A program made the translations under genes and the position numbers. Positions 43,434 to 58,945 of a stretch of DNA of 64,000 nucleotides are shown here, piece after piece. The stretch is from assembly GCA_951406725.2 (NCBI GenBank), contig OX597825.1, positions 88,040,001-88,104,000 of the forward strand, given 5' to 3'. The notes below the pieces were generated by a model. That model ran no database searches, had not been told where the DNA came from, and worked only from the letters and a program-made list of their open reading frames with translations. Positions within the stretch are counted from its first letter, which is position 1, and every line of letters starts with the position of its first letter. The stretch comes from Octopus vulgaris (taxonomy: Eukaryota).

Positions 43434-43465
<32 letters not shown>

Positions 43466-43469
<4 letters not shown>

Positions 43470-43672
43470 ACCCAAACAAGAAAACACAAAGAGAAAACAC
43501 AACAACGCGAGGACGTGGAACAAGGATAGTATTATTGGACGCTCGGGAAAGGAAAGAAAGAAGGAGGATTTAACGTTTCGAGCGGAGCTCTTCGTCAGAA
43601 ACACAGGAAAAGGAAGGATCCAAGGAAGGGAAGACGGAGGCAAAAAATCGCCAACGATACAGACGCGGTCAC
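43466..43672 (-). mobile_element. Penelope-like terminal-repeat fragment between TA tracts
   Basis: Carries an intact minimal hammerhead and is bounded by (TA)n on both sides. Confidence 0.6.
43568..43602 (-). ncRNA. Minimal type I hammerhead ribozyme motif
   Basis: Minus strand gttt-CTGACGA-a-GAGC-tcc-GCTC-GAAA-C-GTT-aaat: intact core, 4-bp stem II, AACGTT palindrome, 4-bp stem I. Confidence 0.75.
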
Positions 43673-43872
43673 ATTATATATATATATATATAAAATCAAT
43701 GAACAGGTCGCGGTCTCAAAGCGACGAAAATATTTTGGCAAATTAAATTTAAATCTTGGAGTGTATACAACTGGTTTTTGTTTGGGTGTTTCTTAAATGG
43801 CCTATAAACACCATCCACGCTGCATTGTTTTCGTTCCAGTACACGATCTCAGATCAGGTCACTTGCTACGCA

Positions 43873-45988: not shown

Positions 45989-46140
45989 CCAGTCATTTGA
46001 CTTCGGCCCAGCTTGGACACTAACTTGAAGGATTTCAGTCAAACGAATCGGCCTTTATATTTATTTATTTTTAAAGCCTGGTACTAATTATATCTGACAC
46101 TGTTGCCGAACCGCTACGTTACGGCAATGCAAACACAGAC
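45989..46140 (-). mobile_element. SINE family A 3' part (diverged), abutting the hammerhead SINE
   Basis: cagtcatttgacttcggcc...tgccgaaccgctacgttacgg...aaacacagac. Confidence 0.7.
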
Positions 46141-46147
46141 ATAGAGA

Positions 46148-46308
46148 TCTGTATTTAAGAGATGAGGAATTATTTACATTATTTACATTCGACAGATATT
46201 TGTCCTCATCTCCATTGTTAACACAACGATTCAGCTGATATACCCAGCCTTCATCGGGTGTCTGGGAAAATTTCGAACCTGGGTTCTCATTCCTAAGGTA
46301 TTTTTCAA

Positions 46309-46387
<79 letters not shown>

Positions 46388-46463
46388 CCCACGGGCCTAA
46401 GGCATAGTGGTTAAGAGCGCGGGCTACTAATCCCAAGATTCCGAGTTCGATTCGAGGCAGTGA

Positions 46464-46506
<43 letters not shown>

Positions 46507-46656
46507 TTCGAAAACATACCTTAGGAATGTGAACCCTGGTTCGAGATTTCCTCAAGATACCTGATGAATGTTGGAGGGTATATCAGCCGAAACGTTGTGT
46601 TAACAACAAACAAAATGAGGACAAATATCCGTCGAATGTAAATAATAAACATAAAT
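46148..46656 (+). mobile_element. tRNA-Arg-derived SINE (head 46392-46467, (AAT)n, tail 46506-46656) with an upstream inverted copy of its tail (46148-46386)
   Basis: A-box ggcatagtgg and B-box gttcgattc. ctac..atc..aagattcc..gttcga resembles tRNA-Arg(ACG). The reverse complement of 46170-46306 aligns with 46510-46650. Confidence 0.8.
46556..46601 (+). ncRNA. Minimal type I hammerhead motif in the SINE tail
   Basis: gatac-CTGATGA-a-tgttg-gagggtatat-cagcc-GAAA-C-GTT-gtgtt. The inverted copy (46220-46262) supplies gacac and ggctg, giving better stems I and II. Confidence 0.65.
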
Positions 46657-49600
46657 AGGTAAACACACACACACATAGACACATACACACACACACACAT
46701 TAAACATATAAAAAATAATGCATTGTAATAACAGATAAAGAGAACATTTTGAAATTCGACATCATTGATTGAAAATTGTTTCGAGTACTTGTGCTGTTTG
46801 ATAGGAAGTTAGATTTGAAGTAAGCATGGTAGTTTCTATAAGTTTTCAGGGGTTGAAGAATCGTCGTTCTCATAAGAAAGAGACAGGTTTCCTACACGTG
46901 CTGTACTACTGAGTAATTAGATGATCTTGATTGAGTATTTAGAGGATCTTGATGTGGTTTTCCCATGTCTAAAAAGTTAAAAAAACATCGAGACAAATTA
47001 AAAAAAACTTGTGAAGCATTGTTGAATAAAAAACGTAAAGGAAATCGATAGCTGCCACAGCTAAGTAGCAAGCGCTAATTACGTTAATAAGCAACACTAA
47101 GTAAATATATGAAAGAATACTGTTTTGGATTCCCATGTTTAATTCTTAAGGGTGATAACAACAAAAGAGAGTTCATTGAGTGACCAACGGAAATATTGGT
47201 GCCCGACCGCTGAGAATTTCTTGAGATGAGCACAAACAAATCTAAGGGCATTCTTTTAAATGTCCCCTTCTTCAATTGTTATTATCGTAATCATAAATAT
47301 AAAGGCACAATGTATGGAAAGGAATTCTTAATAATGTTCTGTTAACGGACAACTTGTTGCTCCTTAATATTATTCTGGAAAGGAAATATAAATGCATTAA
47401 ATTTACTGCTTTAAACTTATTTTCGTAAAATGTTAGAAACGTTAGGATGTAACCTTAACCAATTATTTCTATTTTCATTCAATACAATTTGAGATTGCCA
47501 ATGGAAAATTAAACACCAACATCCTGTATAGTATGTCAACTAACAAATTACGGTAGACATGTTTAATTTATTCATGTATGTTACTAAATATGACCAAGAA
47601 ATCGATTTCAACCTATCGCTGTATCGGTGGTCTCATCGTCTTTAACAATAAAAATAGTATTTACATACATACATAGTTATTTATATACATACATACATAC
47701 ATACAGATATATTGTATGGGTGTCTGTGTGTGCGTGTGTATACTTATGCGTTGATGTGTGTACTTTTGCTCACCTGTGTATGTGTGTGTGTGTATGCATC
47801 AGCTGTCACCTATGAATAACAAACCCTTGTTGTATTTCACGCGGACCACAATGTTTAGGTAAATCCTAACTCATTGTTCTATTAAACGTGTGTCATATGG
47901 AATAGCGGTATGCAAATCATCCTAATTGTTTTCGTTTCTCTAAGTATAAATCAGCAATTTTATTTCCCATCATAAACCCATTCCTTCAAACATGAAACGA
48001 TATACATGATTGAATATTCCGCATGCATGACAATATCAAAATATTTAGTGATGTAAATGAATTGATGTCTGACAATTGAACGTGGAACCACGTCATGGCT
48101 AGCTAGCTGCCTTTCTATTGTTTAACATTAATTAATTTAAGTGGAATTTCTAATATCACAGTTTTACAGTTTATGGGAAGATTCATTCGTTGTAGTATCC
48201 TTCTCAAAATCATTACGATTCAAGCAGGAGCTGCGAAGTCAACCTCAGCAAACAGAAGTCATTTTAGAAGGCTCTACCGTTATTATGATGCACATATGTA
48301 TAGGCATAAAGTATCATTTCGGTGAAGCCATACACTTGCACAGGCAATATATATATCGTCGACACTCGTTCTGGATTACATTAAATATCTAAGGAAGTGA
48401 AATAGAAGCGGAACTTGGAGGACTGTCATTCGGCATAATTAAAGGCTTTGGATATGAGACTCAAACATATTCAAGTGTGCAAAGGTTTGGCTTTGAAGAA
48501 TAGTCTCGTCTTTCATTTTCCTCTCACTATTCTTTCCCACGACATTTGGAGAGTTGCCATATCTAAGTAATCCAGTAAAAAATGTTACTGAATTCTATAT
48601 TATTTATCACAAGAAGAGCGAAACTGGTATTTGTTTATTTGAATCAGAAATTCATTCCATTCGGGTTGGTCTTTTCTGGACTTCACTATGCAATTCGTCT
48701 TTTCCACCTTAGGGGCGTAGCTTAGGATTAAAGAAAATCAGTCTGATATCACTAATGATACAATCGACAATATACACATCCATTATTGGTTTGTCTGATG
48801 CTGTATAACTGGTTCACCATTCTAGATGCATTATTTACAAAACAATCTTACTTATACACTTCAAAACAGTCTTGTGCATTTTGAGTCACACTTTCAATAT
48901 ATAAGAATAATAGGATTACACTAAAACATCGTTTTCTGTCGCGAAATCTCCTGACATAGAATTCTTGGTACACGTTTCGAAAAATTGTAAAAGGAAAAGG
49001 TGTATTTGTTAATGAATAGGTAATTATGCAAAAAAAAATTTAATGTGGAATCTATGACAAAAAAAACAGAAGGCAGGGTCGTATCCGGTGGAATATTTGT
49101 ACAGTTTATTTGTGTTTTTAAAGACGTGGTTTAAATATTAAGATTCCGTTGCTATTTCTAGCAAGCAACAAACTTGCACAGAGGCTACTGCATCCGAGTT
49201 AGAAAGATCTAGTATACAGTTGTTTGTTTGATACTTTCTGATATATTTAAAAATGTCAAACATGAGTTAGGTGGGACTATTATACATTTCTATATACAAT
49301 TCTATAAACGATATCTATAAATACATGAACTGCTGGTCATATTTGAGTTTGGTCAATGGGTTTTTGGAAATCAGCCGAATTACCTTTTTAGTGGATGTGT
49401 TTAGGATGTTTATATAGCAGCGTCAGCATCAGCATCCCACATATCTATGCATTACTAGAATGTGGGTTGCATAAATAGTTGTCAGTCAATATTTATTGAT
49501 AAAATGAAATCGATAATGAACACTGGCCTGGAAAGGACAAAGTCAAATTGATGGAAAAAAACTGAAAAGAAAAATATTATATAAATAATCCGATTTTGTA

Positions 49601-58663: not shown

Positions 58664-58881
58664 CTTGTTTCTGTCATTTGACTACGGTCATGCTGGAGCA
58701 CCGCCTTTAGTCGAGCAAATTGACCCCAGGAATTATTCTTTGTAAGCGTAGTACTTATTCTATCGGTAATTTTGCCGAACCGCTAAATTACGGGGATGTA
58801 AACACACCAGCATCGGTTAGCAAGCGATGTTGGGGGACAAACACAGACATACAAACACACATACACATATATATATATACA
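58664..58881 (-). mobile_element. SINE family A, 3' half (split by LINE copy 5)
   Basis: gtcatttgactacggtcatgctggagcaccgcctttagtcgagc...gacaaacacagac(CA/TA)n, then the LINE begins. Confidence 0.92.
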
Positions 58882-58945
58882 TAATATCTTTTTGTCTTCT
58901 CTCGAACATAGTTAGATAGATAAACAAATAGACAGATCATCCAGC

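Follow-up and report, generated by a model that had tools for sequence, protein, structure and literature searches.

Structure of the insertion

The window analysed here is a 64,000-nt stretch of the Octopus vulgaris genome (contig OX597825.1, positions 88,040,001 to 88,104,000), and it contains an insertion composed of two arms in opposite orientation. The left boundary lies at about 46142, which corrects the earlier value of 46148. The forward arm, on the plus strand, begins at position 1-2 of a tRNA-Arg-like head (46387..46468) with an A box (46400..46410) and a B box (46444..46454), which is followed by an (AAT)n spacer (46468..46505) and a tail (46506..46654). The tail corresponds to the 5' end of the reading frame of a Penelope-like element (PLE), with an ATG at 46527 and then a stop codon in the window copy. 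The head, boxes, spacer and tail, including the CTGATGA motif, had been named in a sequence-only reading of the window, and all of them can be read directly in its letters. Relative to 51 aligned heads, the first T of the A box is replaced by an A and the last C of the B box by a G. ARAGORN did not call the head of the window copy, and Rfam did not call its hammerhead.

The forward tail contains a minimal type I hammerhead (46556..46601), identified by sequence, pattern and family alignments, with the layout given in PMC4209133. Stem I is formed by 46556-46560/46597-46601, the core CTGATGA spans 46561-46567, stem II is formed by 46569-46573/46584-46588, and GAAA (46589-46592) is followed by a palindromic ACGT. 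The sequence at 46589-46596 is GAAACGTT, and the predicted cut falls after 46596. The hammerhead pattern has one match in the window, versus none in 100 shuffles.

An inverted spacer and tail are located directly 5' of the head (46142-46386, minus strand), as had been claimed, and match the forward tail at 81% of 143 aligned columns. The inverted tail (46142..46306) matches tail positions 3-174 on the minus strand in BLAST and is equivalent to the opening codons of the PLE frame. It includes an extension of about 30 nt at its end, which in the window pair is present in the inverted arm only. The arm is 5'-truncated within its (AAT/AAC)n spacer (46308..46386, minus strand). Towards the 3' end of the inverted tail, a 10-bp stem (46159..46212, with 46159-46168 paired to 46203-46212) is present as described, with a fold z of -2.25. 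The inverted hammerhead (46220..46262, minus strand) is recognised from its sequence and from the alignment of the arms, and is decayed. The two arms do carry different lesions: in the forward arm all 11 core letters are intact but the closing pair of stem II is gone, whereas in the inverted arm two core letters are altered and 3 nt of the loop are deleted.

The insertion is flanked by a tentative 12-nt target-site duplication (46130..46141 and 46660..46671, plus strand), in which 10 of 12 letters match; duplications in the family are mostly 10-15 nt, and the one in the window is only tentative because its letters are of low complexity. The left copy adjoins the end of an older and different short host repeat with a CA-rich tail (46074-46141), further copies of which lie near 579-720 and 58744-58885 of the window. 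The insertion is almost certainly a worn head-to-head pair of 5'-truncated PLE end repeats, that is, a stub.

Abundance and conservation of head, tail and hammerhead

Genome-wide, a 34-nt hammerhead pattern is matched exactly 2,270 times and its reversed control never, which at roughly 7% decay would correspond, as a rough estimate, to the order of 20,000 arms. The genome candidates number at least 2,744 for the tail and at least 919 for the head. The tRNA-Arg assignment of the head held up in a comparison restricted to tRNA-Arg genes: it matches the O. vulgaris tRNA-Arg(ACG) at about 68-70%, and its score against tRNA-Arg(TCG) is also far above shuffles. Both boxes are conserved across the aligned heads (n=51). 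Tandem clusters of tRNA-Arg genes lie at about 211.89-211.91 Mb on C2 and at about 5.23-5.24 Mb on C20.

The head and the hammerhead both adjoin simple repeats, which attract insertions, and an unrelated tRNA pseudogene and a hammerhead repeat might thus have become nested by chance within AAT microsatellites. However, a tail follows downstream on the same strand in 25 of 29 loci selected by their heads, and the order and junctions are fixed across hundreds of copies. Chance nesting is refuted by this linkage and by that of the head to a reading frame (see below), and we regard it as extremely improbable.

The family majority has a hammerhead with a 5-bp stem I, CUGANGA, one extra base, a stem II closed by G-C, GAAA and a palindromic ACGU at stem III. 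The same layout is described for metazoan PLEs in PMC4209133 and is found behind 19 related frames. The composite hammerhead that had been assembled from the two damaged arms of the window is identical to the commonest letters of the family (76 tails; 221 arms). The majority sequence thus holds an intact minimal hammerhead. All 11 core letters are kept in 140 of the 221 arms. Conservation among copies is 0.947 in the core versus 0.935 in other columns, which gives no signal of selection on the hammerhead, as expected for dead copies, and folding of monomers did not yield the active form, as expected for a dimer-type motif.

The suggestion that the tail is neither a poly-A nor a LINE-type tail agrees with its identity as the start of a PLE frame with two fixed classes of 3' ends. 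These lie at about 140-147 and 172-174, within and just after the 10-bp stem. By analogy with PAc, the Poseidon element of Anolis carolinensis, as described in PMC11167929, the stem region is a candidate start site for reverse transcription.

A Penelope-type reading frame linked to the head and tail

A protein search of the family loci identified reverse transcriptase (RT) fragments just 5' of the heads, and the autonomous PLE that the sequence-only reading had proposed to look for was found: a Penelope/Poseidon-type frame with RT and GIY-YIG domains that runs into the tRNA head. Among 30 RT-selected loci, including the query locus, 23 hold the end of the frame, and in 22 of these it continues straight into the head. 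The frame-head junction has 483 exact matches genome-wide, and in long copies the head begins about 25 nt after the PLE stop codon. A junction query, which itself included 41 nt of the tail, recovered 30 loci, and the tail is continuous with the frame in 29 of them. The tail is in frame with the N-terminus in L219 and L213, where it matches residues 19-104 of the homologue P0003. The hammerhead and the extension are therefore the first codons of the frame, as in PAc. In P0003 (55% identity), the starting peptide at residues 19-32 fits a hammerhead-coding stretch.

The unit consists of the frame (RT, GIY-YIG), 25 nt, the tRNA head, (AAT)n and the opening ~52 codons of that frame; both the hammerhead and the one-sided extension lie within these codons. 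Because the head lies behind the frame and the tail is the start of the frame, the two constitute the end repeat of the element and not a separate parasite. The head and the microsatellite are the sole sequence that separates tandem frames.

The commonest letters contain an open frame of 571 codons that starts inside the tail. The longest natural open frame, in L171, has 569 open codons of RT and GIY-YIG out of about 840, and full-length homologues are 780-855 aa long. The RVT_1 match of L171 is just below the cut-off, and GIY-YIG was assigned by its motif and by homologues with 55-68% identity, PF01541 giving no score on the L171 frame. A CX2-5CxxC zinc finger between the RT and the endonuclease is absent from L171 and P0003 and present in the Neptune-type frames L091 and L101. 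In a quick tree, which included no named Penelope/Poseidon reference, the element was split from the Neptune-type frames with full support. With a single frame of RT and C-terminal GIY-YIG, no zinc-finger linker, a minimal hammerhead, and an inverted arm with a one-sided extension, the element structurally belongs to the Penelope/Poseidon kind.

One natural copy, L449, is nearly complete but decayed, and no intact full-length copy with a head at both ends was found among the loci examined. The arms differ by 5-7% from the commonest letters, and this divergence together with an open frame of at most 569 codons makes the family look inactive or nearly so. At the rate given in PMC13282606 the age would be roughly 14-19 million years, in samples biased to well-kept copies, which is close to a burst of SINEs and LINEs reported in the same source.

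A search with PF01541 found mostly Neptune-type PLEs. Their flanks lack a match to the tail, except for one unrelated insertion close by in L104, and they are therefore rejected as the partner. They include a young family (L091-L100) with many intact 781-aa RT and GIY-YIG frames, in which the hammerhead pattern was not found. The family (see L094:1268-4971) also has an upstream overlapping frame of 479 aa with no clear Pfam family, as well as tandem repeats in the 3' UTR.

Several copies are internally deleted (L423, L432, L433, L436-L438 and L446), such that the tail and 119 or about 231 nt of the frame are joined to another head or tail. Some of these are in tandem on C29, and the breaks recur at the same frame positions. 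They are possibly non-autonomous sub-lineages or products of a third priming site. A homologue with 53% identity (the cluster of P0006) groups with barnacle proteins, closer than the distance between the hosts predicts, which hints at horizontal transfer. Public runs under six organism labels contain part of the family (L173:4900-5740); four of these runs were aligned, and the spread is a lead.

The insertion footprint

To describe the footprint of the insertions we used 88 loci, taken in chromosome order by exact hammerhead pattern, and the window, 89 loci in total; 90 had been fetched, of which one overlapping locus and one without a scorable arm were dropped. The samples were chosen by similarity or exact pattern and come mostly from chromosome C1. 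The count of inverted insertions and target duplications that had been called for gave 148 arms, which form 52 head-to-head pairs. The ~30-nt extension is located on exactly one arm in 49 of the 52 pairs, on neither arm in three, and on both arms in none. Target duplications, mostly of 10-15 nt, flank 31 of the pairs, versus 0-1 in 20 shuffles of the flanks.

An inverted 5'-truncated copy with an extension at one end is presented as a PLE signature in PMC8557442, and two internal priming sites with nicking of two strands are described for PAc in PMC11167929. The footprint fits the PAc-type priming and nicking. Mobilisation by Penelope-type machinery, as postulated from the window, is thus supported both by the footprint and by the linked RT and GIY-YIG frame. 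In a set of 34 pairs that were not chosen by tail likeness, arms from the same locus have 1.29 rare variants in common versus 0.58 for arms from different loci, and a distance of 0.076 versus 0.085. The excess of common rare variants within loci suggests that both arms likely go back to a single template or source copy and have decayed independently since.

Short copies and their 5' ends

Among 75 arms, 23 stop within 71 nt inside the head. The remaining 52 comprise 39 that stop within 23 nt at the start of the head, 20 of them within five positions, and 13 that run past the head into the frame, over 1.4 kb, three of which (L127-L129) are near-identical. The peak of 5' ends lies about 13 nt upstream of the A box, which is where Pol III would be expected to start. 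Of 27 pairs, 22 have a single arm that stops at the start of the head and a partner that ends anywhere; in the other five the joints are symmetric. Three raw RNA runs from one study, for which library strandedness is not given, also have a boundary at the head-start base (395, 311 and 322 reads), and the reads at this boundary mostly continue into an inverted head. In the three runs the reads map equally to both strands, with no pile of starts or ends. An imperfect hairpin is located at head positions of about -10 to +15 (L173 sequence), and this, together with the reads that continue into the inverted head, indicates that fold-back can explain part of the boundary peak.

The hairpin is one reason to consider that the copies are ordinary truncated PLE stubs, in which the tRNA is a passenger in the 3' UTR, transcription is by Pol II or by read-through, and the joints arise by hairpin-favoured fold-back or by annealing of two cDNAs. 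The symmetric joints, which also appear in the consensus of the RNA-read boundary, would agree with such an origin, as would smaller pile-ups at other near-palindromes, for example at head 23, and the lack of diagnostic letters between short and long copies. Penelope moreover has an internal promoter and an intron in its pLTR, according to PMC8557442. However, the pairs are predominantly asymmetric, the 5'-end peak is situated where a Pol III start is expected, and the unit contains no run of four T (see below). The stretch between tandem frames, head and spacer only, also leaves little room for another promoter. We therefore consider ordinary stubs unlikely.

The sequence-only reading described the window copy as a tRNA SINE that parasitises Penelope-like machinery. 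The mobilisation by a PLE is supported, while the separate SINE is not, as the head lies behind the PLE stop codon, the tail is the start of the PLE frame, and no diagnostic letters were found. At every compared column of head and tail, 75 arms that stop at the head start have the same commonest letter as 41 frame-linked arms, which rejects a separate SINE lineage as far as these columns go, and divergence is similar (5-7%) in all classes of copies. The family meets the description of SINEs in PMC3531059 in its length of about 300 nt (below 700 bp) and its tRNA-derived head. It differs from that description in that head and tail are both part of the coding element, not of a family distinct from its partner, and in that the tail is the start of a PLE frame, not a simple-repeat 3' tail with a partner LINE. 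The family is SINE-like at its 5' end yet outside this definition of a separate LINE-dependent family.

Could there nevertheless be a distinct non-autonomous tRNA SINE that has its own master copies and uses the PLE protein, the head-bearing frames being its parent or a later fusion? Short copies at the head start are about three times as numerous as long ones among the sampled arms, exact matches to patterns of similar length number 938 for short versus 483 for long copies, solo copies carry both promoter boxes and the priming region, and internally deleted tandem units exist (L432, L433, L436-L438). A weak difference is also seen at one loop position, which is an A in 29 of 75 head-start arms versus 6 of 41 frame-linked arms (p 0.04, uncorrected). 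Against this, no column is diagnostic, all classes are similarly diverged, and the head is integral to the autonomous element, and we judge a distinct SINE to be quite improbable. It overlaps with our preferred explanation insofar as short copies may be re-copied in trans. The location of the tRNA segment within the PLE end repeat suggests that a single protein-coding element likely generates the SINE-like copies as by-products.

The head as a putative Pol III promoter

We consider it probable that the family represents an abundant PLE with a tRNA-Arg head in its end repeat, in which the head likely serves as a Pol III promoter and the element's own enzyme likely produces the SINE-like copies. 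With slightly less confidence, we also favour the view that the head, as a predicted Pol III promoter, sets the 5' end of the RNA. The RNA would start at the captured tRNA-Arg head. As described for PAc in PMC11167929, the PLE protein would nick both strands, and reverse transcription would begin inside the RNA at two neighbouring sites, so that an arm with and an arm without the extension would meet 5' end to 5' end. If priming takes place at the tail closest to the 5' end of the RNA, the product would be a copy of ~300 nt that ends at the transcription start, the SINE-like class; priming at a downstream copy of the tail would give long copies with the frame. Because priming is internal, short copies with intact boxes could also be templates in trans.

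Runs of four or more T are established terminators of Pol III transcription, as also stated in PMC4758252. No such run occurs in the commonest letters of frame and head (2,580 nt), nor in those of the tail start or the spacer. The significance of this absence varies with the null model, from P 0.001 to 0.08: with 32 relatives of comparable T content as the reference, 6.7 runs are expected (P 0.001), composition predicts 4.5 (P 0.009), and a null model that preserves dinucleotides predicts 2.4 (P 0.08); P is 0.03 given the 12 TTT runs of the unit. Decayed copies contain 26 runs versus 153 expected, and 62 relatives contain 534 versus 356 expected. Three Neptune-type frames of the same genome have 9, 8 and 4 runs, and all 19 relatives with a downstream hammerhead have one in the frame or spacer.

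The relatives come from an alignment scan of metagenomes. From its 80 loci we kept the 62 that matched over about 1.2 kb; for the comparison with downstream-hammerhead relatives one duplicate was dropped, leaving 61 loci. A metagenome scan with a single protein found no related loci. Runs of four G are likewise absent from the 2,580-nt unit, and the relative L338 lacks both a tRNA head and, over 1.9 kb of frame, any run of four T. No pair of A and B boxes was found beside the 62 related metagenome frames, many of which have short flanks. As a sign of Pol III transcription over the whole unit, the absence of T runs is suggestive, not decisive.

Taken together, the arms that stop at the head start and the absence of T runs from the unit suggest that Pol III may transcribe from the head, and perhaps through the entire element. 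A bolder version, which we hold only tentatively and think somewhat less likely to be right than wrong, is that the captured tRNA gene replaced a Pol II promoter, that Pol III reads the coding element from end to end, and that terminators were purged from 2.6 kb. Through internal priming, that RNA would then give rise to SINE-like copies by the tens of thousands, and, if true, this would show how a SINE can be born directly out of its own autonomous element. Two further points count against our preferred explanation: an uncapped Pol III RNA would be a poor message, and the predicted hammerhead cut lies inside the reading frame. If Pol III reads the whole unit, the question is how an uncapped RNA with an in-frame ribozyme is translated.

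Comparison with known repeat families

OR1 and OR2 are of tRNA-Arg origin and, together with OK, are octopus SINEs reportedly described by Ohshima and Okada in 1994. The family studied here resembles all three in being a tRNA-derived octopus repeat. OR1 and OR2 are cited as CORE SINEs in PMC4758252 and PMC4824008, while every segment of our unit is assigned to the head, the microsatellite or the PLE frame, with none left for a CORE domain. On these descriptions, identity with OR1 or OR2 looks unlikely. Our literature search found no description of a PLE with a tRNA head, or of a tRNA SINE mobilised by a PLE in octopus; the family may be named in repeat databases or in the 1994 paper on octopus SINEs, which lay outside the search.

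Like PAc and other endonuclease-positive PLEs of the Penelope/Poseidon group, as described in PMC11167929, PMC8557442 and PMC4209133, the octopus element has one frame of RT and C-terminal GIY-YIG with no zinc-finger linker, a minimal hammerhead that overlaps the start of the frame, an inverted 5'-truncated arm and an extension of 30-40 nt at one end only. It differs from their descriptions in that the stretch between frames consists of a tRNA-derived head and a microsatellite throughout, in the sharp 5' end of its copies at the head, and in a unit without runs of four T. The TRIMp3 elements Cassandra, Helenus and Ajax (PMC10886601) similarly have a Pol III promoter derived from a small RNA within the terminal repeat, the octopus promoter being putative. 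However, these are described as non-coding LTR elements, whereas the octopus head is part of a protein-coding PLE. The same source expects the autonomous partners of TRIMp3 elements to need Pol II, given the weak processivity of Pol III.

Non-LTR retrozymes (bioRxiv 10.64898/2026.07.22.740005) and non-autonomous Chlamys elements such as MRC1 (PMC8557442) resemble our short copies in that they too are short, derive from the end repeats of PLEs and need PLE enzymes. Retrozymes are described as head-to-tail tandem arrays with no described tRNA promoter, while the octopus copies are mostly dispersed inverted pairs, and unlike retrozymes and MRC1 the short octopus copies form no separate lineage. 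The head-to-tail tandem hammerhead units that characterise retrozymes are limited to short tandems in L123, L436-L438 and L446, and most octopus copies are single or inverted arms.

The schistosome repeats SM-alpha and Sj-alpha are tRNA-related. As described in PMC8490949, they resemble the octopus family as SINE-like repeats with a type I hammerhead, but their hammerhead is canonical and they are non-coding units, in tandem or dispersed. No autonomous element with the SM-alpha or Sj-alpha head is mentioned in the available text of that source.

Implications and a neighbouring hammerhead repeat

SINEs are defined as separate Pol III parasites of LINEs, and Pol II is the polymerase that autonomous retrotransposons are expected to need (PMC3531059; PMC10886601). 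A single Penelope-type element that holds both the enzyme and a SINE-type head blurs the split between SINEs and autonomous elements, and suggests a way for SINE-like repeats to originate that can be tested. In addition, its inverted pairs, which run into the thousands, provide statistics on the integration step of Penelope elements, including the one-sided extension and the common template. Octopus repeat annotations probably split the family between "SINE" and "Penelope".

The window contains a second, unrelated repeat of ~215 nt within (TA)n (43462-43676, minus strand), with a minimal hammerhead that ends in the palindromic GAAACGTT. Apart from a chance neighbour, no frame is linked to it in 25 loci. 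The repeat has 1,357 candidates in the genome, 40 of which were scored at 92-95%.
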